DNA of 64,000 bases. It comes from a virus. Lineage: Duplodnaviria; Caudoviricetes. The DNA lies in the IMG/VR virus record IMGVR_UViG_3300031867_000002, positions 32,001 to 96,000 of that record; one strand, given 5' to 3'. Every line of letters starts with the position of its first letter. Position 1 is the stretch's first letter. This document shows positions 33,400-44,984 of this stretch, piece after piece. The translations under genes and the position numbers were made by a program. The notes beneath the pieces are model-generated. The model was not told where the DNA came from and made no database searches. It was given only the letters and a program-made list of their open reading frames with translations.

Positions 33400-34206
33400 A
33401 TGGATAATCCAACATATCTTTCTTTTGATTCTGGCATTACGGATGATAGAATTTATGCACATAGAGGAGATATATTTATCTGTAATGGACTATTCAAAGA
33501 ATTAGATACAATAGATAAGGATGACCATATATTAGGAAAATCTACAAGACCAGTTCTAATTATTTCTGATGATGAATACAATAGAGATATCGTAAAAGTA
33601 TTAGCATTCTCTTCTAAAGAAGGTTCTGGATATCAAGACTCTATTAACTCTTACAGAAGCATTAGGGTCCCTGGAGTTAATAACAATCCAAACCCAAGTT
33701 ATATTGATGTGTCTCAGGTATTTACTATAAATACATATCAATTAAAAGTCAAGTTAGGACATGCTTCTCAAGATATTGTAGATGCAGCTGTGGCTTTACA
33801 TACTTTACAAAATATAAATCAGAATAGTATTAGTACAATGATGAAAGTATTAAGAGATAGATTCCCAAATGCACAAGCATTTAAACAGAATAATACTGGA
33901 GTTGTTGTTAGTACAAAAAGCATGAGTATGATAGATAATATGAGAAGTCCATTTACTGATGTATTTACTAGTGTACAAAGAGTTAATGAAGAAGATTTGT
34001 TATGTGAAATCAAGAGTACCTTAAAAGAACCAGAAACTAAAGATGATGCATATGTGTTATATCAAGAGTGGTTATTAATGGGTACTGATTCATTCAGAAA
34101 TAAATATGGTTTGAGTAGGCAACAATATTATACACTTAGAGATAAGTGTGTAAATAAAATGTTGGGTAAGGTAAGTAACTTTAAGAAATACGACTGGTCG
34201 ACATAA
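33400..34206 (+). CDS. MazF/PemK-family domain fused to a C-terminal extension with possible HTH
   Basis: RGDIF, GK.TRPVLIISDDEYN, V..FSSK, SYIDVSQVFTI and L..KLG; late promoter at 33375. Confidence 0.78.
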   Translation: MDNPTYLSFDSGITDDRIYAHRGDIFICNGLFKELDTIDKDDHILGKSTRPVLIISDDEYNRDIVKVLAFSSKEGSGYQDSINSYRSIRVPGVNNNPNPSYIDVSQVFTINTYQLKVKLGHASQDIVDAAVALHTLQNINQNSISTMMKVLRDRFPNAQAFKQNNTGVVVSTKSMSMIDNMRSPFTDVFTSVQRVNEEDLLCEIKSTLKEPETKDDAYVLYQEWLLMGTDSFRNKYGLSRQQYYTLRDKCVNKMLGKVSNFKKYDWST

Positions 34207-35283: not shown

Positions 35284-36219
35284 ATGCCAAAAACGTATAA
35301 TAACACGTTTATATATACTAAGTTTCCATATGAAGAACATATCTTTCGTTTTCTAATCAATGCAGATAGAATAGATAAAGATAGTCCTAAGTTTGAAGAT
35401 GTAAAATATGAATTTAAGAAAAGACAAGTTAATAATGGCTTGTTAAAAGTATTGTGTTCCAAGAATGTAATTCTGTTACAATCTCAGGCTCAGCCACTTA
35501 ATACTCAGTTTAGGGTAATCTGTTCTAGAGACCCTAAGTTTAAATCTAATACTGATTACAAAGTATTCATTGATTGTACTGGACTTATTGTAAATGATAA
35601 GGATGGTAATTATAAATGCCGTAGTATTGATATTCTAATTTCTCATGTTATTAATGCTATGGTTACTATGATTTATCATAAAGCTGAAAAAGAAGTATTA
35701 TCCACTTATCTTGTTAAGAATACTATGACTGCTTTCTCTGCTTTGTTTACACATGTAATCGATTACTTAGCAAAGATTTCTGTAATCTCTTCTACTAAGT
35801 CTAAATGTCAATTCTTATCATGTATGTACTTTGTAGAGAATATACTTCAAAAGGAATTCAATGAAGGATACCAACATATGGCTGGCTCCATTTGTAATCT
35901 ATCAGATAGAGAACAAGAGATGATTATGGTACAATGTGATGAAAAAGACTTTGATAATATTAAAGCCTTCGTTTCTAAACTTTCAGACATTATTAAAGTA
36001 CCATCTCTTAAAGTAGATAATATTATTGATAAGTGGATGTATCTCTATGGTACTAACACTGTATTTGCTCTTGAGTATTATCCAGCTTTGTCTGCTATGC
36101 TTACAGATGCATATTGTGGAGCTTATATAAATAATCAAAAGACTATTGAAAAGGTTGTAGGTAATACACTAGTAGAATATTCTAAAGATATTATTTCTAA
36201 AGGTGGAGGTATGGTATGA
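35284..36219 (+). CDS. Putative virion structural protein
   Basis: Late promoter variant and AGGAGG RBS; 4-nt overlap with the 1771-aa gene. Confidence 0.65.
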   Translation: MPKTYNNTFIYTKFPYEEHIFRFLINADRIDKDSPKFEDVKYEFKKRQVNNGLLKVLCSKNVILLQSQAQPLNTQFRVICSRDPKFKSNTDYKVFIDCTGLIVNDKDGNYKCRSIDILISHVINAMVTMIYHKAEKEVLSTYLVKNTMTAFSALFTHVIDYLAKISVISSTKSKCQFLSCMYFVENILQKEFNEGYQHMAGSICNLSDREQEMIMVQCDEKDFDNIKAFVSKLSDIIKVPSLKVDNIIDKWMYLYGTNTVFALEYYPALSAMLTDAYCGAYINNQKTIEKVVGNTLVEYSKDIISKGGGMV

Positions 36220-39200
36220 GTACTTATCTTGAAGATGCTCAAGGTAAAATCGTATCTAATCCTATTAATGAAACCAATACTAAGTACGCATATACTCCTA
36301 AGAATGAAGATAATGTTAAGGATGCAAATAACCATCCTATAGACTATCAATATATGTATAATGATGATGAACCAGTTAGCAATATAGATACTGATGTGTT
36401 CTCAAGTTATCGTAATAAGACTGAAGAACTAAGAACAAAGACAGAGAGTTATTATGAAGCTCTTGAATCTTGTTTAGTTCCAGCTGAAATTCCAGGTATG
36501 GCATTTCAACCTTGGGAGTATAGAAAAGATAAGGATGAAGATGGAAATGATATACTGACTAAGATTAAGTCTCTTCAGTATTTCTTCCAAGACCATCCTT
36601 CTAATATAGGCTCTGATGCTAAAGAATTTGTTTTTCGTACTAATAAGGTAAAGTTTGTTGATGACAGACATCGTAGATTAATCTATGATAGAAAGATTCA
36701 TATTATGGCTTTACAAGAAGACGAAGATAATAAAGTATCTTTTAAAGATGTATTGCTTCGTACATTCTTTACCTATTATAATAATCAGTATTGGTGTAAT
36801 GTAAGAAATCTTAATGGTGTTCAGTATACGATTAATAACCTTATGTCTAGCATTATAACAGCTAATACTAAAACTAAAGATAATGAAAAACTAGTTGTAC
36901 TAGTTGAAAATGAAGAAACTGGTGATATGGAAGAAAAAGTAGTAGAATCTGTATTAGACTTTGATTATGTAATGCAATCTGGTCAAGATATAAATACTAC
37001 AATTCCAAGCACTGTATATAACTTATATAACATTGGTTGGATTCACGCATCTATGATATTCTTAAATGGATTAGCAATTCAATGGACTAAAGCAATTATA
37101 TCTGTAGATAATATAGATACATTTGTTATAGTATCTGGTCTAGATGAACCACTATCAAGTTATATAGATAATGAAAAAGAAATTACTATGGAATACATTC
37201 ATATTCCTTTCAAGTGTATCTATACAGTAGGTATAGAAAATGCTTCTAATATGAATTGTCCATATAGAGAATTTCTAAACTCAACTAAGACTAAATTTGA
37301 TACAGTACCATTTATGTTTGATAGACGATATGGTGCTATATTACAAGTCTCAGATTATTATAAGAGTGCTACATCTCATAACACTTATTATGATAGAGTA
37401 ATTTGTGTAGACCCTAATATTAAATTTGCTGAGTTTTATCTTAATGAGGGTAATATTAAAAGTAACGAATTTTATCTTCCTGATATCGGTATACAATATA
37501 ATCAAGACTTTAGAGATTTCTGTAATAATGATTATAGATGTAAACTTAAACAGTTTAACTTTATAGGATTTGAACTCAATAAAGATATTAATGAAGAATT
37601 CGGCGCTAATTCCTTATTGACATTAAAGAATGATGACTTTAAAGTAACTTGGCACCCATTCAATATTTTAGACATCAGATTCAAACGTCTATATAATAAC
37701 AGACGTCTATTTAAAGTATTCTACAATACTAAAGTTTTATATGACCAAGATAATATTCTTCGTATTAAAAATCATGATAAACTTGCAGATGAGTATGAAA
37801 AGTATAGACAAGATGTAACTGCCAATATTGAAACTTATCTCAATGAAGTTTATTTACTTGCTAAGAAAGATATTGGTACTTATATTAATATGAATAAGAA
37901 GACTTATACTTATGGATACAAATATCATTATGTAACTCCATATGAATGCTTCTTATTGTTTAATGCTATACATGGTTTACTTGGTAGACAAACAGTATCA
38001 TTTGATGAGTTTAGAAAACTAAACGTAATCAATTATGAAATCCACAAGAAATCCTCTGATGACGGAGGAGGAGGAGGTGGAGGTGGTGGAGGAGGAACTG
38101 GAGACGGTTTTGATTATATATATCCAGAATATATATATGATGAGCCAGACGATGATGATTATCCAGATGATACACCTTCTTCAGATACTGACGATGATGA
38201 TGAACCGAAAATAGATACAGAACACTATGTAGGATATATGCGTGGTGGATTTGTAGTCTATGATGATGACCATAATTTCTTTAGCGAAATGGTTAAAGAA
38301 AAAACATTGTTCGATAACGAAGGAAATCTTAATGTAGATATAAGAGCATTTTGGGAAACTATTATAGCTCTTGATAGTGTTGCTTATTTAACAGATTTCT
38401 TAATTCCTATAGATGATGTAAGAAATAAAGAAGATGACGAACCAGTATCTAGTAATCTATTCTATATGTATAATGGAGACAACAAAGGTAAGATTGAACC
38501 ATATTCTAAATATATGACTGGTTATTCTTTTGTACAAGAATATGATGATGTATCTTATGACTTCCTTAAACTTAGATTTGAAATGTCTTATCTAAACAAT
38601 ATGGAAGAAGGAGCAACTCCAGTAGATGAATTTATTTATTACTTTGATAATGATAACTTCTTGAAAGCTAATGCTGCTCCAGTTGTATCTTCTTACGATA
38701 AACGGTATACAACAAACTTATTAAATGCATTAGCATATAATGTATTTAAATCAGACCCACATCTAGTATTAGAGAGTATACTGAAATTAAATTACTCTGC
38801 TGACTATATACTTCCTAAGTCATTACCTGTTAATACAAGTAGGGATAATATAATTACTTCATCAGAAACCAATTCTATATATTCAGATTATCATAAAGAC
38901 CCAAGATATTTCTATAACTTTGGTTATTACGATAATGCTACACCTCATAAGCTTGTATCAGAATGGGGTCTTAGACGTAATCTTCCAGAAATGTTCTATT
39001 GGGCATTAGAGGAAGATGAGTATACTATAGATAGTATGCATCTCTTAGATGAAGTATTTGATTTCACATACGGGTTTGATAAATCTTATGAAGAGAATCT
39101 GTTTGGTCAAGGTGATAAAACTAAAGGTATGAACTATATTATCGGTTATGATGCTGATAAAATAGAAGCTACTATAAAACGTGGTATTACATCATTCTCT

Positions 39201-41531
39201 AGGACAGGTAAAGAGATTAAAGATTATATCAATTCTCATCCTACAGAACTATATACGAGTATAGATAGTTACAAAATGTTTACCTTTGTAACTAATAATA
39301 ACTATATTGTTACTACTAGTCTTGAAAGATTATATGCTACTATCAATAGAAACGGTAGTGTATCATTCTCTTATGTAGATGGCGATGGTATATATCATGA
39401 GAATGTAACTACTGATATAGAGCTTAGATACAGAGGACAAGTAAATCCTACTATTAAAATCAATACTACTGATTGTACTATTACTGATATAGATAAAGGC
39501 TTTACTGTTACTTATGCAGCAAATAAGACAGTCTATAATAATGATACTGAGCTATTAGAATTTTATGATGATAATAATAATTTACTTGTTACAATGCAAG
39601 TAGATAGAATTAGTTCATATACAAAACTTAGTATGTCACGTTGGAATATATCTAAACAAGATAACTATGTAATGATATTTAAGAATAGAGTATTGTATGA
39701 TAAGTACTATACTATTCATTATACAGATATTTCATTCGATGTAGATATGAATGAATCTGATGTAACAGATGATGATGTATTTGAATTTGTATTCTTCCTG
39801 AATGCTAATAACAGAATCATTGAAAAGAAATGTACATCAGCTAGTGATGTATCATTAACTGTTCCAAGTGCTTATATATCTAAGAGTAGTAATGGTATTA
39901 GAAAAGATACAAATAACGATGATATGGACAAAGGTTTATATCAAACTTTAACAAGTGATTATACTTTTGATAAACCTGCTATAGCATGTGATACAAGTTT
40001 ATTTGATGCAGAGAATATTCAATTGCTTGTAAATAAAATGCCTAGTCATAATGATGATACTTATAGTACATCTGATAATAAAGTTACGACATATGAGTTA
40101 AACCATGATGTATATTATTATAGAGCTACTATAGATAATGGTACTTCTGTAAACTATCAGAGATTTGTTTATAATATCGTGAAAGATACTAAAGTAAATG
40201 GTCTTTATAGACTTACTAAACAAGGTGGAGGAGAATATTTCTTAACCTTTGATGGTACAGTTCCAGAAAAGACAGATACTATAACTACAGATACATCTGA
40301 CCCAAAATTTATAGACTATGGTTATCCTACTGACAGAACTCTTACATTACCATATACAATATACTTATCTTCTAAACGTCAATTTAGATATCAACATCAT
40401 GTAATTTCAGAAAATCATGATTCTGCATATCTAATGACTTTGAATTCAGACTTTAAGTTCTGTACAAAGAATAGTCACGTACTGTTATTCAAGAATGGCC
40501 TATTATTACCACCAACTTATTACTATCTACATTCTATTATAAATACCCCTATAAATCATGTAGGTATAATATTCAATATTCCTCTTGTGAAAGATGATGT
40601 TATAGATGCATTCTATGTGACTAATGATTTACATCATCTTGAATGCGATTATTATGATGTCGTTAATCAAGAACGCTATATATCAAATGGTGATATTAGA
40701 TTAAACTCTCATGATAACGAATATAGAGTAATGGGTGAAGATAAAAACCAAGTAGATTATCCAGAAAAGACTGAGCATCCTGATTGGAGAACAAACTATA
40801 TTAAAATGCGTTCTCCATTATATGCAATTTCTAGTAAACATTCTACTTTTGTATTCTTAAATGGAAAGAAAGTTATGATGAGTGAACTAGAGGATATATC
40901 TGATACAATTATGTCTATCAATACAGATTATGCTCGTAATGGTGATGATATGGCTGCTGTACGTTTGGAAGTAATTAATCATTTAGATGTACAAGATATT
41001 ATTGAACAGATGTATATCAATGATGGTTTAATGCATAGTAAGTCAGATTGTAATCTTCAGTTTGGTAGTACAAACAAACCAGAATCTTATAAAGATACAT
41101 TACAGATAAATCAGTTTTCTCTTACAGACCTAGAGTCATATGCTAAGAGGACTTTATTAGACGAAATACTAAATGATTTGTCTGATGAGAATCTAAACAA
41201 GCTATTCTATAATTATGATAATGCTACTGGTCCTATGACTCAAGAAGGTGAATTAGAAGAACCAGACTTCATTAAACCAGACGAGATTATAGATGAAATT
41301 ATAGACGAGTATTATTATGAAGATGATGGTGATAAGTTTATTTGGCATACAATGCATGATGAAGACAACGGATTCTCTAATACAGTATTCTATATTGGTG
41401 AAAAGGATAGTGTTAGAGTACCTGTAATATGGGATGAAGAAAATGTAAAAGCATTATACGGTACAACCTTCAATAGAAATGATATTATTAAGAAAATCAT
41501 TATTCCTGAAGGTGTAGAAAGAATTGAGTAA
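36216..41531 (+). CDS. Large virion (tail/baseplate-associated) protein ending in a truncated BspA-type LRR
   Basis: 1771 aa with repeated beta-rich modules (F.NG, IFKN..L, LFKNG.L), a poly-Gly linker and C-terminal IKKIIIPEGVERIE. Confidence 0.7.
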   Translation: MSTYLEDAQGKIVSNPINETNTKYAYTPKNEDNVKDANNHPIDYQYMYNDDEPVSNIDTDVFSSYRNKTEELRTKTESYYEALESCLVPAEIPGMAFQPWEYRKDKDEDGNDILTKIKSLQYFFQDHPSNIGSDAKEFVFRTNKVKFVDDRHRRLIYDRKIHIMALQEDEDNKVSFKDVLLRTFFTYYNNQYWCNVRNLNGVQYTINNLMSSIITANTKTKDNEKLVVLVENEETGDMEEKVVESVLDFDYVMQSGQDINTTIPSTVYNLYNIGWIHASMIFLNGLAIQWTKAIISVDNIDTFVIVSGLDEPLSSYIDNEKEITMEYIHIPFKCIYTVGIENASNMNCPYREFLNSTKTKFDTVPFMFDRRYGAILQVSDYYKSATSHNTYYDRVICVDPNIKFAEFYLNEGNIKSNEFYLPDIGIQYNQDFRDFCNNDYRCKLKQFNFIGFELNKDINEEFGANSLLTLKNDDFKVTWHPFNILDIRFKRLYNNRRLFKVFYNTKVLYDQDNILRIKNHDKLADEYEKYRQDVTANIETYLNEVYLLAKKDIGTYINMNKKTYTYGYKYHYVTPYECFLLFNAIHGLLGRQTVSFDEFRKLNVINYEIHKKSSDDGGGGGGGGGGGTGDGFDYIYPEYIYDEPDDDDYPDDTPSSDTDDDDEPKIDTEHYVGYMRGGFVVYDDDHNFFSEMVKEKTLFDNEGNLNVDIRAFWETIIALDSVAYLTDFLIPIDDVRNKEDDEPVSSNLFYMYNGDNKGKIEPYSKYMTGYSFVQEYDDVSYDFLKLRFEMSYLNNMEEGATPVDEFIYYFDNDNFLKANAAPVVSSYDKRYTTNLLNALAYNVFKSDPHLVLESILKLNYSADYILPKSLPVNTSRDNIITSSETNSIYSDYHKDPRYFYNFGYYDNATPHKLVSEWGLRRNLPEMFYWALEEDEYTIDSMHLLDEVFDFTYGFDKSYEENLFGQGDKTKGMNYIIGYDADKIEATIKRGITSFSRTGKEIKDYINSHPTELYTSIDSYKMFTFVTNNNYIVTTSLERLYATINRNGSVSFSYVDGDGIYHENVTTDIELRYRGQVNPTIKINTTDCTITDIDKGFTVTYAANKTVYNNDTELLEFYDDNNNLLVTMQVDRISSYTKLSMSRWNISKQDNYVMIFKNRVLYDKYYTIHYTDISFDVDMNESDVTDDDVFEFVFFLNANNRIIEKKCTSASDVSLTVPSAYISKSSNGIRKDTNNDDMDKGLYQTLTSDYTFDKPAIACDTSLFDAENIQLLVNKMPSHNDDTYSTSDNKVTTYELNHDVYYYRATIDNGTSVNYQRFVYNIVKDTKVNGLYRLTKQGGGEYFLTFDGTVPEKTDTITTDTSDPKFIDYGYPTDRTLTLPYTIYLSSKRQFRYQHHVISENHDSAYLMTLNSDFKFCTKNSHVLLFKNGLLLPPTYYYLHSIINTPINHVGIIFNIPLVKDDVIDAFYVTNDLHHLECDYYDVVNQERYISNGDIRLNSHDNEYRVMGEDKNQVDYPEKTEHPDWRTNYIKMRSPLYAISSKHSTFVFLNGKKVMMSELEDISDTIMSINTDYARNGDDMAAVRLEVINHLDVQDIIEQMYINDGLMHSKSDCNLQFGSTNKPESYKDTLQINQFSLTDLESYAKRTLLDEILNDLSDENLNKLFYNYDNATGPMTQEGELEEPDFIKPDEIIDEIIDEYYYEDDGDKFIWHTMHDEDNGFSNTVFYIGEKDSVRVPVIWDEENVKALYGTTFNRNDIIKKIIIPEGVERIE

Positions 41532-41551
41532 TAGAGAGGTGGTAATTATAT

Positions 41552-42628
41552 ATGGCTTATTCAGGGCAAGGACAAGGTACATCTACCGACCCATACCAAG
41601 TTACAACATTATATCAGCTATTAGAAGTTTTTAAAATATACAATGCTTCTGCCGTTGTACAACCACAAGTATATTGTAAGTTAATGAATGATATAGATTT
41701 CAATGACTATCAAGAGTATTGGTCTGTACCGAATGAATTATTTTATGCTAATAATACATCAACTGATACTTATAAACGTACTAAATTTATATATATAGAT
41801 GGAAATGGTTACGGTTTATATAATATGTATTGTTATAATAATACTTCTGTGTTTAAATGCTTTTCTACTACATCATCTTATCATAATGATATAATAATAA
41901 AAAATATAATTATAGAAGCTATATATATAATGAGCATTAGTAATAGTGGTAGTGATGGTGCTGATAAGCATAGATTTTGTAGTAGTGAGAGTTATTATTC
42001 TAGTGCTGTACATTTTATAAATAGTGATATAAGATTAAAATTATATGCATATACTACACCAAATCAATATTCTACTATGTTTTATATGTCATACTTTACA
42101 AATTGTATTATAAATATTGATATTATTTGTAATAACACTGTGTATATCAACAATTCTAGTGGTTATGATTATGGTTATGGTTACGATATTATTCAACAAT
42201 CTAGTACTAGTAGTGGAAACGATACAGACTATTCTAATTATTATAATGAATGGAATATACGTATTTTAGGAATTATGGAACAATCTGCAGGTACTAATTA
42301 TTATTTATCTCTTCTTGCTAGTGACCATAAATTTAGTTCATTCTTTATAGAAATGGTTGGTATTAAATCTAATATAGGAAATATTAGAATATCAGGAGGT
42401 TCTTACTTTTCTAATTGTTATTTTGTTGTTAAAAACAATAATTCGACATATACTGGAACTATGAAATTTGATTATTTTGTTACTGGTATTAATTTTTACG
42501 ATAAAGATATTGCGGATAATCACATTGTGGATACTCATAGCGGAAGTGGTTCATTACTTGCACTTACAACAGCACAATGTAAGAATGCAGAATATCTAGA
42601 ACAACAAGGATTCATTATAGCTAGATAA
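41552..42628 (+). CDS. Putative adhesin/receptor-binding protein A
   Basis: N-terminal GQGTSTDPYQV, Y.KL..DIDFND, IDG and C-terminal LTTAQCKN..YL...GF; paralog of 43247-44305. Confidence 0.6.
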   Translation: MAYSGQGQGTSTDPYQVTTLYQLLEVFKIYNASAVVQPQVYCKLMNDIDFNDYQEYWSVPNELFYANNTSTDTYKRTKFIYIDGNGYGLYNMYCYNNTSVFKCFSTTSSYHNDIIIKNIIIEAIYIMSISNSGSDGADKHRFCSSESYYSSAVHFINSDIRLKLYAYTTPNQYSTMFYMSYFTNCIINIDIICNNTVYINNSSGYDYGYGYDIIQQSSTSSGNDTDYSNYYNEWNIRILGIMEQSAGTNYYLSLLASDHKFSSFFIEMVGIKSNIGNIRISGGSYFSNCYFVVKNNNSTYTGTMKFDYFVTGINFYDKDIADNHIVDTHSGSGSLLALTTAQCKNAEYLEQQGFIIAR

Positions 42629-42639
42629 GAGGTGATTAT

Positions 42640-43194
42640 ATGTCTAGTTTTATTATAAATCCTAATAAGAGAGATGGATACCCTGTTATAGATGATAATA
42701 CACATGATTTTGGTCCTACACAAACTACTCCATATCCAAAAAGAGAATTCTATACTGGTTCTGATTTATTAGACGGGTATCCTATAATGGATGGTTGGAA
42801 AAGTTTTAGTCCAGTACAAGATAGCATATATCCAAGTAACATGTTTAGGATTGATGCTAGTAAAATGCAAGGCTATCCATCATTTTCATTCTTTGGAGAT
42901 TTTAGTCCAGTACAAGATAACATATATCCAAGTAACATGTTTAATATTGATGCTAGTAAAATGCAGGGCTATCCATCATTCTCATTCTTCGGAGATTTTA
43001 AAAATTTTGGAGCATTTGAATTTGCTGAAAATTTAACTAAGATAACAATACCTAGAAGTGTTCGGTATGTATGTGATTACGCTTTCTGGGGTTGTAATAA
43101 TTTAAAAAAAGTTCGTATACATCCAGATTGTGTATACTTTTCACATTCTTTTCCAGAAGAATGCGAAATTCAATTCTATGAAGAAAACGAATAG
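42640..43194 (+). CDS. DGYP-repeat protein with C-terminal BspA-type LRR (adaptor A)
   Basis: Four [D/Q]GYP repeats, then GAFEFAENLTKITIPRSVRYVCDYAFWGCNNLKKV. Confidence 0.7.
   Translation: MSSFIINPNKRDGYPVIDDNTHDFGPTQTTPYPKREFYTGSDLLDGYPIMDGWKSFSPVQDSIYPSNMFRIDASKMQGYPSFSFFGDFSPVQDNIYPSNMFNIDASKMQGYPSFSFFGDFKNFGAFEFAENLTKITIPRSVRYVCDYAFWGCNNLKKVRIHPDCVYFSHSFPEECEIQFYEENE
42805..42996 (+). repeat. 96-bp in-frame tandem duplication (2 copies)
   Basis: 42805-42900 matches 42901-42996 (FSPVQD.IYPSNMF.IDASKMQGYPSFSFFGD). Confidence 0.95.
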
Positions 43195-43246
43195 AATATA
43201 TGGCTAGCTCATATGAGCTAGCCTATTATGTAAAGGAGGTAAGTTT

Positions 43247-44305
43247 ATGGCTGTTACGCTTGAAGGACAAGGTACAGAAGATAGTCCTTACTTAGTATCT
43301 AATCCTGCTGAATTAAGAGCTGCTGTACAAATAGCTGATTGTTATATCAAACTTAAAACTGATATAGACTTTAATGACGATACTGTTATATGGGGATGGG
43401 AACCGCTTATGATATATTGCAAACAAATAGATGGTGATAATCATAAGATAACTAACTGTTATTGTTATCAAAAGTCTTTCATGATTGGTTGTGTTGGAGA
43501 AAACAATCCTTTTATTATGAAGAATACTATTATAGAAGCAATATATTTAACTAGTGCAACTCAAAGTAATGGTACTGGAGCTACTAATGGTGCATTTATT
43601 TTTCCATCATATTATAATATAAGTCGTATTTATATGTTTTTCTATGATTGCGATTTTAGAATTAAGTATTATGTAGAAAAAGACGATGCAATTCTTTTTT
43701 ATAATGCAGTTTCTTTTAATGGTGGTATGGTTTTTATTAGAAGATGTATATTAAATTTAGACATATTTCCAAATAATCATGACCAAATAAATATTTTTAA
43801 ATTAACTAGAACTGGTGTAGAAAGTAGTTTGATTAGTAATAATGAGATAAAGATAAATCTACATTTAGCTAATAATTTGTTTACTGGTAAAGAAGCCTTT
43901 AATAGAGATACAAGTTTAACTTCAAATTCTAAATCTTTATTACATATTTATTACACAGGCGGTAGTTATGATATTCCATATTTTACAAATAATGCTACAT
44001 TTATTAATATAGATGGTATAAATGAGAACTTACCATCTAAACTATGTATTTTATTATCATACGCTAAATCAATATCTAATTGTTATTTTATACTAAATGA
44101 TGTTAAAGGTAACTATCTTTCTTCTAAAGAGATACATTTTAAAATATTTTATGGAGGAGCTTGTTCTACATCTTGTTTTATGAATAATAAAGCTAAGTTC
44201 TATAATAAAAGCCTTACAAATAATGAACCGAACATGCATATTCTGACAGATGAACAATGTAAGAATCTACAAGAATTACTTAATATAGGATTTCTTGTTG
44301 TATAA
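43247..44305 (+). CDS. Putative adhesin/receptor-binding protein B
   Basis: GQGTEDSPYLV, YIKLKTDIDFND, IDG, IIEAIY and C-terminal LTDEQCKN...L..GF. Confidence 0.6.
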   Translation: MAVTLEGQGTEDSPYLVSNPAELRAAVQIADCYIKLKTDIDFNDDTVIWGWEPLMIYCKQIDGDNHKITNCYCYQKSFMIGCVGENNPFIMKNTIIEAIYLTSATQSNGTGATNGAFIFPSYYNISRIYMFFYDCDFRIKYYVEKDDAILFYNAVSFNGGMVFIRRCILNLDIFPNNHDQINIFKLTRTGVESSLISNNEIKINLHLANNLFTGKEAFNRDTSLTSNSKSLLHIYYTGGSYDIPYFTNNATFINIDGINENLPSKLCILLSYAKSISNCYFILNDVKGNYLSSKEIHFKIFYGGACSTSCFMNNKAKFYNKSLTNNEPNMHILTDEQCKNLQELLNIGFLVV

Positions 44306-44318
44306 GAGGTGATGTATT

Positions 44319-44906
44319 ATGGCTGGTGGTGGAACTTTACAAGAACCTGAAATCATAACAAAAGCTTGGTGGGAATCTGATTTTACTTTAAATCCAGATG
44401 TATTAGACGGGTATCCTTCTTTTGCTGAATTAGGTAATTTTAAAGATAATACTATGGATTCTAAATATAACTTTACTAGTCATGTACAAGACTTAAATGG
44501 TTATCCATCTTTAAGATTAGGTCCTATAGTAGATTATAATTTTAATTCACATTACGTTTTTGCTACAGGAACAGACTATTTAAACGGTTATCCATCTTTA
44601 CAACAAGAGTATGTAAATATAATAGACGACTTTCTTATATATTCTAAGTATGTATTCTCTCATCAACAAGATAATACTTATATAGATGGATATCCAACAT
44701 TAGGACAACAAGATTTTGAACATTTTGGTGTTGCTAAAGATTGTACATTAGAAGAAGTTGTTATTCCAAAGTCTGTTATATTTATAGCAGACTGGGCATT
44801 CTATAATTCTAATATAACATCTGTAAAGATAAATAGACATTGTGTTTATTATCCTCATTCATTTCCTCCTGGATGTCATATTAAGCCTTATAATGATGAG
44901 GGATGA
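44319..44906 (+). CDS. DGYP-repeat protein with C-terminal BspA-type LRR (adaptor B)
   Basis: Four [D/N]GYP repeats, then LEEVVIPKSVIFIADWAFYNSNITSVKI..CVYYPHSFP. Confidence 0.7.
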   Translation: MAGGGTLQEPEIITKAWWESDFTLNPDVLDGYPSFAELGNFKDNTMDSKYNFTSHVQDLNGYPSLRLGPIVDYNFNSHYVFATGTDYLNGYPSLQQEYVNIIDDFLIYSKYVFSHQQDNTYIDGYPTLGQQDFEHFGVAKDCTLEEVVIPKSVIFIADWAFYNSNITSVKINRHCVYYPHSFPPGCHIKPYNDEG

Positions 44907-44984
44907 TATATCATCCCTCATCTCTTTATCTTGAACAATATTATAAAACATAGACTCTTAAAAAGAGTCGGAAAGGATTGTGTT

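Follow-up and report, generated by a model that had tools for sequence, protein, structure and literature searches.

Why does a large phage structural protein end in the middle of a repeat? The question is raised by P0001, a putative virion or tail protein encoded in a 64,000-nucleotide stretch of viral DNA (hereafter, the window; bases 32001-96000 of the IMG/VR record IMGVR_UViG_3300031867_000002). Its gene is followed by two gene pairs, or cassettes, each encoding a beta-helix protein (P0002 or P0004) and a small adaptor (P0003 or P0005). The best explanation, to which we assign a probability of roughly 0.6, is that one small BspA-type leucine-rich repeat (LRR) domain is encoded in two pieces and serves as a dock for the beta-helix cassettes. 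P0001 would end with the N-terminal cap (N-cap) and first coils of the domain, its chain stopping in the loop before the 'xxAF' of the next coil (the socket), and P0003 and P0005 would end with the missing coils and a Cys-containing C-terminal cap (C-cap), together forming the plug. The plug would stack on the socket post-translationally, completing the hydrophobic core of a capped solenoid of four to five coils, and this completion would fix the adaptor to P0001.

The P0001 chain ends in ...IIIPEGVERIE, and the stop is genuine since a double stop (TAA TAG) is followed by a Shine-Dalgarno site and then by the next gene's ATG. Neither Pfam nor PHROG returned a match for P0001, and the tail as a single sequence has no Pfam match, LRR_5 included; in a protein atlas, the nearest entries to P0001 were viral LRR_5 proteins at 0.79-0.83, which is below the trustworthy range. 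When 1.84 billion representatives were searched with the C-terminal 432 amino acids, 37 representative relatives emerged, seven of which carry the tail, and two further examples from fetched loci brought the number of tails to nine. All nine (35-74% identical to P0001) stop at the same mid-repeat position, IPEG[VI]xx[IL]x. Whereas the single sequence is without a Pfam match, the profile built from the nine tails matches the solved BspA-type LRR 4gt6_A (E 5.9e-5), with profile positions 28-81 falling on residues 20-78, corresponding to the N-cap and first repeats. The chain of 4gt6_A runs on as GSNAF exactly at the point where the phage tails stop. An earlier note on this DNA had read the end of P0001 as an N-cap and first BspA repeats halted before 'xxAF'; the profile alignment and the common end of all nine tails support this reading, and the stop position is not due to chance.

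The two adaptors are paralogues (31% identity, E 2e-19) of 184 amino acids (P0003; 42640-43194) and 195 amino acids (P0005; 44319-44906). P0003 matches Pfam LRR_5 (PF13306) with 30.6-32.8 bits, over the curated cutoff of 27.7, and P0005 scores slightly under this cutoff with 24.6-26.3 bits. The plug profile matches the solved BspA LRRs 4fs7, 4gt6 and 4h09 (E 3e-22 to 1e-18). Plugs start with [FW]G-A-F or an equivalent, and their cap, C.Y..HSFP..C....Y, is near-invariant across 19 sequences. The proposal that the small downstream proteins supply the remaining repeats and a shared cap is upheld by these matches and by the recurrence of the cap. Socket and plug are complementary in register, as joining the terminal I-E of P0001 to the F-G-A-F of a plug restores the I-g-x-x-A-F spacing of the family. 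BLASTP comparison of the P0001 tail with each adaptor gave no match, which is expected of complementary halves as opposed to paralogues.

The socket (82 amino acids) was modelled together with plug A of P0003 and its last preceding GYP repeat (85 amino acids), each with its own alignment. The median interaction prediction score from aligned errors (ipSAE) was 0.81 (runs 0.55, 0.82 and 0.81), versus 0.01 for the best of three controls. Of solved complexes, 58 of 80 attained this mark, as did 2 of 110 mismatched pairs; the counts are approximate, since our own alignments were used. The runs share at least 78% of contacts, with a partner predicted local distance difference test score (pLDDT) of at least 69, and the pLDDT of both halves is 75-82 when they are modelled together (two best runs) versus 34-57 with unrelated partners. 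The modelled interface comprises P0001 residues 1747-1771 and P0003 residues 123-145 and 148, and the contacts of lowest error (F63-F27, I69/K70-L33, I74-P39, V78-V42 and I81-V45) are in register, indicating that the last coil of the socket stacks on the plug's first coil in the manner of successive solenoid turns. The continuous solenoid anticipated in the earlier note for the P0001 tail and an adaptor is predicted, at this score, for plug A.

Six independent socket-positive lineages have sequence available downstream of the socket: the window with L008 and L009, which are near-identical; L003; L005 with L010; L011; L012; and L016. In all six, one to three cassettes lie directly 3' of the socket gene, each comprising a beta-helix-like gene of ~280-370 amino acids and then a gene for a protein with a C-terminal plug. 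Two partial loci add to these: L002 carries at least three plugs, its contig beginning within the first, and L013 encodes a 121-amino-acid socket protein followed by an adhesin-like start at which the contig ends. In the socket-negative loci L001, L014 and L015 the large protein is ~65 residues shorter at its end, there is no cassette, and a conserved membrane/GAF-like gene (a homologue of P0006, see below) comes directly after the large protein. The co-occurrence, 6/6 versus 0/3, corresponds to a rough Fisher p of ~0.012, uncorrected for shared ancestry. Profile searches of complete genomes found exactly one socket and two capped plugs in the 224,632-bp genome of the window, exactly one socket and one capped plug in that holding L016, and no socket and no capped plug in that holding L001. 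Socket-less relatives (L001 10480-10572; P0028 and P0031) still have a vestige of the N-cap hairpin, for example ...GTLYYLGDDIKAP..., and terminate soon after it, which points to a deletion that removed both the remaining socket and the cassettes.

The same parts are found in a different setting in L012, a non-jumbo locus and the most informative of the set. Here the genes run from a tape measure and a tail protein (phrog_1887) to an unrelated 276-amino-acid protein ending in a socket, then to a 276-amino-acid beta-helix-like gene and a 316-amino-acid protein ending in a plug. As all three occur in an unrelated tail module, socket, beta-helix and plug appear to move jointly between tail architectures. 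The position that they occupy in L012 is where receptor-binding genes normally sit. We infer that P0001 itself resides in the virion, from the tail-module position of this analogue and from the gene immediately upstream of P0001 (35266-36219), which matches phrog_21032, annotated as 'virion structural protein'. A narrower search with the type-B plug alignment identified one further phage, L016, and in bacterial genomes it returned generic LRR proteins only, with no prophage socket or plug. The earlier note suggested looking more widely, in phages and prophages, for proteins with an IPxGVxxIE end beside DGYP-LRR genes; such neighbours stand together in all six phage lineages, that of the window included, and none turned up in the bacterial genomes covered by the type-B search.

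The beta-helix proteins P0002 and P0004 are 27% identical (E 5e-22), with the similarity concentrated at both ends, and 38 homologues of P0002 were identified. The AlphaFold2 (AF2) model of P0002 (pLDDT 89.2, predicted template modelling score 0.90) is a right-handed parallel beta-helix. Its best structural match is an IgA1 protease (6xja_P; Z 16.1 with 3.6 root-mean-square deviation over 257 aligned residues), and the Bacteroides protein 3n6z (Z 14.6) is the top match in Foldseek (E 1.5e-4). Next, with Z of ~13-14, come adhesins (PfbA, SRRP), polysaccharide lyases and, at about 13, the HK620 tailspike. The predicted fold fits an adhesin or a depolymerase. The paralogy of the two proteins and the fold of P0002 agree with the earlier description of ~355-amino-acid adhesin-like genes with conserved ends and a divergent middle.

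The N-terminal halves of P0003 and P0005 each contain four GYP-type repeats, as had been noted from the sequence under the name of DGYP-type repeats. Three adaptor N-terminal types exist among the relatives, all having [DNSG]GYP motifs in common, with 3-7 per protein. In adaptor 1 one GYP repeat has been gained through a 96-nt tandem duplication (42804-42995; 94% identical); in the near-identical L008, which lacks it, the adaptor has 152 amino acids and three repeats. To judge from these sequences, the repeat number is evolving now. When P0003 was folded alone, residues 1-124 stayed below pLDDT 50 and the LRR part reached 74-88. The GYP half is likely to be extended or to fold upon a partner. 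A protein atlas search with the GYP half gave nothing usable. Two PHROGs of unknown function match P0003, whereas P0005 has no PHROG match.

Across twelve cassettes, the similarity of the beta-helix proteins tracks that of the adaptor N-terminus (Spearman rho 0.82, Mantel p ~0.0005) and tracks that of the plug weakly (rho 0.27), the plug being the most conserved element of the cassette. Two natural chimeras, L002_a1 (L002 1470-2204) and L004_a (L004 635-1282), combine a type-A N-terminus and a type-1 beta-helix gene with a type-B plug, which shows that recombination has taken place between the adaptor gene's two halves. In the second cassette of L010 (8032-9754) both genes are damaged: the beta-helix gene is split into parts of 130 and 238 amino acids, and the adaptor cap is frameshifted, its motif readable in another frame. 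This damage is compatible with functional coupling, with decay of the cassette as a whole or with a metagenome assembly error. The overall pattern of co-variation fits a common socket that would constrain all plugs and a cognate pairing between GYP half and beta-helix protein.

Split-solenoid docking is well supported in silico. Conserved truncation, co-occurrence, conservation of the plug and the in-register complex model form four independent lines in favour of the completion in trans proposed earlier. The other part of that proposal, in which each adaptor loads its cognate adhesin to give two host-range modules, is backed by gene order and co-variation, which linkage could also produce. From this gene order and the co-variation of the N-terminus we infer that each adaptor loads the adjacent beta-helix protein and in this way sets host range. 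The string of 3-7 Pro- and aromatic-rich GYP motifs would hold the beta-helix protein encoded immediately upstream, and the beta-helix proteins would be receptor-binding or glycan-degrading modules acting on host surface glycans. A single docking site, on a virion protein present in multiple copies, would serve several specificities, and virions probably carry a mixture of modules on several P0001 copies. Cassettes, of which phages have from one to at least three, could be gained, lost and swapped because all plugs would fit one conserved socket.

It is conceivable, but improbable, that the split LRR docks as described while the GYP repeats of the adaptors themselves bind the cell surface, the beta-helix proteins being independent tail enzymes or adhesins located elsewhere. 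A labile repeat number and a fresh duplication, as in adaptor 1, are typical of surface-binding repeats. The GYP half is, however, predicted to be unfolded alone, and a beta-helix gene lies immediately 5' of every plug gene in all lineages. Moreover, the type of the N-terminus follows the type of the adhesin, chimeras included, and L010 has both genes of one cassette broken together.

We hold it equally doubtful that there is no completion in trans, with the P0001 tail self-sufficient and the small proteins acting as fibre-assembly-type chaperones with a short LRR of their own, the whole forming one mobile receptor-binding block. The order of the genes, fibre and then small protein, does resemble that of fibre-chaperone pairs; the LRR part of P0003 is fairly confident when folded alone, and the P0001 tail lacks a Pfam LRR_5 match of its own. 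This view is opposed by the identical mid-repeat terminal residue in proteins down to 35% identity, by plugs that always start at the complementary point, and by the contrast between the complex and its controls with stacking in register. In addition, LRR_5 was the only Pfam family found in P0003 and P0005, and neither Pfam nor PHROG gave a match to Caudo_TAP or any other tail-fibre assembly or chaperone family. That the split is an artefact or is recoded, by a sequencing frameshift, a pseudogene, or readthrough or bypass of the stop to give one chain, has nothing in its favour but the unusual mid-repeat stop and is highly implausible given the double stop followed by translation signals, the identical stop position in independent assemblies and lineages, the more than 1.4 kb (a whole beta-helix gene and GYP half) that separates socket from plug, and the separate start and ribosome-binding site of each adaptor; readthrough of the P0001 stop was rejected on these grounds.

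Several points weigh against the split dock for beta-helix cassettes. The modelling may stack any LRR fragments by their likeness to solved LRRs, and the controls were unrelated proteins rather than other LRR pieces. The result covers plug A; plug B begins with FGVAKD instead of FGAF. The LRR part of P0003, being fairly confident alone, may be able to dispense with completion. In none of the 37 representatives for the C-terminus of P0001 does the chain run past the socket, and a fused socket-plug protein was not found among them; a search for longer plug-bearing proteins gave only generic multi-repeat LRR_5 proteins without the cap, which is weak evidence. The lineage counts are small and not phylogenetically corrected, and physical linkage of adjoining DNA can account for the way in which adhesin and adaptor N-terminus co-vary. 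Finally, the parts are known from the sequences of uncultured phages, and their presence in virions is putative.

The features of the locus, including two hairpins that lie between cassettes 1 and 2 and at the end of cassette 2, are collected in Table 1; the five ORFs agree in position with the earlier note.

Table 1. Coordinates of the socket gene, the two cassettes and the hairpins, as positions in the window.
Feature	Position	Strand	Basis or extent
P0001, putative virion/tail protein with socket at C-terminus	36216..41531	+	ORF (open reading frame), 1771 aa
Socket: BspA LRR N-cap, first repeat and final coil	41322..41531	+	P0001 residues ~1703-1771, last ~69
P0002, beta-helix protein 1 ('adhesin 1'), 358 aa	41552..42628	+	ORF, AF2 model
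Adaptor 1 (P0003), N-terminal half with four GYP-type repeats	42640..43005	+	ORF translation
Plug A: C-terminal ~62 residues of P0003, from FGAF; remaining LRR coils and C-cap	43006..43194	+	
Hairpin, perfect 9-bp stem, between cassettes 1 and 2	43202..43223	+	
P0004, beta-helix protein 2 ('adhesin 2'), 352 aa, paralogue of P0002	43247..44305	+	sequence alignment
N-terminal half of adaptor 2 (P0005; type B), four GYP-type repeats	44319..44717	+	
Plug B: C-terminal ~62 residues of P0005, from FGVAKD, cap end ...HSFPPGCHIKPY	44718..44906	+	
Hairpin, 12-bp stem, end of cassette 2	44895..44922	+	

The source record is a single contig of 224,632 bp, and the window (G+C ~30%) encodes gyrase A and B, a DnaB-like helicase and pieces of a split multisubunit RNA polymerase. 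The virus is therefore regarded as an uncultured jumbo phage, on account of the contig size and these genes. The nearest isolates by RNA polymerase subunit are at most 31% identical, for example phiR1-37 and Bacillus and Staphylococcus jumbo phages, and no match was found among 50,697 phage records for the region by megablast or for P0001 by tblastn.

The organization of the large protein varies between relatives. In L001 (4116-10572), L003 (1896-8074) and L016 (2422-8504) it consists of two ORFs of ~1400-1530 and ~615-624 amino acids, the second of which begins with an insert, a multi-repeat BspA LRR_5 domain that is complete. P0001 is one ORF without this LRR_5 insert; around residues 615-660 it contains instead a low-complexity stretch of poly-Gly and acidic residues. 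Elsewhere in the genome of the window (G000, ~151,000-153,100, + strand, outside the window) there are long genes for canonical BspA LRRs, with ~30 near-perfect 23-residue repeats (repeat unit ...SLTSITIPDSVTSIG..AF..C...), and a similar canonical BspA LRR ORF of 971 amino acids is present in the L016 genome. Downstream of the cassettes, P0006 (44931-45821; probable start ATG 44985) is a conserved protein that contains a single transmembrane helix and weakly matches a GAF-like domain (PF01590, E 0.004; phrog_14038), and its homologue always comes after the large-protein/cassette block whether cassettes are there or not (L001, L011, L014, L015 and L016). Upstream, a 268-amino-acid protein (33400-34206) contains a MazF/PemK-like domain (PF02452, E 1e-9), and the gene is retained in the relative L005 (795-1592).

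Phages mount several receptor-binding modules per attachment point, and the known connectors are peptide-binding folded domains or trimeric N-terminal anchors. The closest known concept to the arrangement proposed here is that of systems with branched receptor-binding proteins (RBPs). In podophages of Klebsiella (KP32, K11 and KP34), the branching domain of RBP1 and a conserved docking peptide of RBP2 are required partners (PMC13352976; PMC8262889). The arrangement proposed for the window locus resembles the KP32-type systems in its conserved docking pair, in having more than one specificity module per virion attachment point, in its exchangeable cassettes and in its beta-helix specificity modules. 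In the KP32 type, what binds the folded branching domain is a short peptide at the N-terminus of the second tailspike, whereas here one LRR fold would be divided over two chains, and the docking half is placed at the C-terminus of a separate small adaptor, off the beta-helix protein. None of the parts has a Pfam or PHROG family match that would place it with the KP32-type branched RBPs.

With respect to fold, the repeat motif, N-cap and spacing of BspA-type LRR proteins (4gt6, 4fs7 and 4h09) match both halves at profile level. The known members are single-chain solenoids of many repeats, in contrast to the present case, in which about four coils would be distributed over two genes, the N-cap and first coils being carried by P0001 and the last coils and C-cap by P0003 and P0005. 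The cap motif of the plugs was not seen in the 20 long LRR_5 proteins that were retrieved. Completion of one chain by another is familiar from the donor-strand complementation of chaperone-usher pili, in which a segment of one subunit completes the incomplete fold of another and gives a very stable and specific assembly. The likeness lies in the incomplete fold completed by a second chain; in pili a single beta-strand completes an immunoglobulin fold, whereas here whole LRR coils and a cap would complete a solenoid, and there is no homology between the two.

With respect to gene arrangement, the nearest likenesses are pairs of a tail fibre with an assembly or adhesin protein, and duplicated alternative host-range cassettes, for example S/U and S'/U' in the G segment of Mu. 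The present locus similarly has tandem two-gene cassettes, each with a large specificity protein and a small partner, 3' of a conserved structural gene. Unlike in Mu, an invertible segment is absent, the genes, probably co-expressed, all lie on the same strand, and the small partner carries a putative structural docking half. The cassette proteins showed no Tfa family match in Pfam or PHROG. Full-text searches brought up neither an account of phage proteins that divide an LRR between them nor one of virion connectors made of BspA LRRs; modular docking of RBPs is known, and docking by completion of a repeat solenoid in trans appears to be new.

A broader reading, which we entertain only tentatively, is that of a universal snap-on LRR connector, in which one socket would receive several plug types, flexible scaffolds of 3-7 GYP motifs, their number evolving through tandem duplication, would hold one or more beta-helix adhesins, and the set would move between unrelated tail types. 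As for the split dock itself, the socket-plug pair is small (~70 and 62 residues) and directly testable. If true, it would represent a new principle of virion assembly and a natural case of fold complementation in LRR proteins. It would also explain how adhesin cassettes (one to three or more) come and go in these uncultured 220-kb phages while the giant structural gene is left untouched, and how the three-part set comes to be found in an unrelated tail module.

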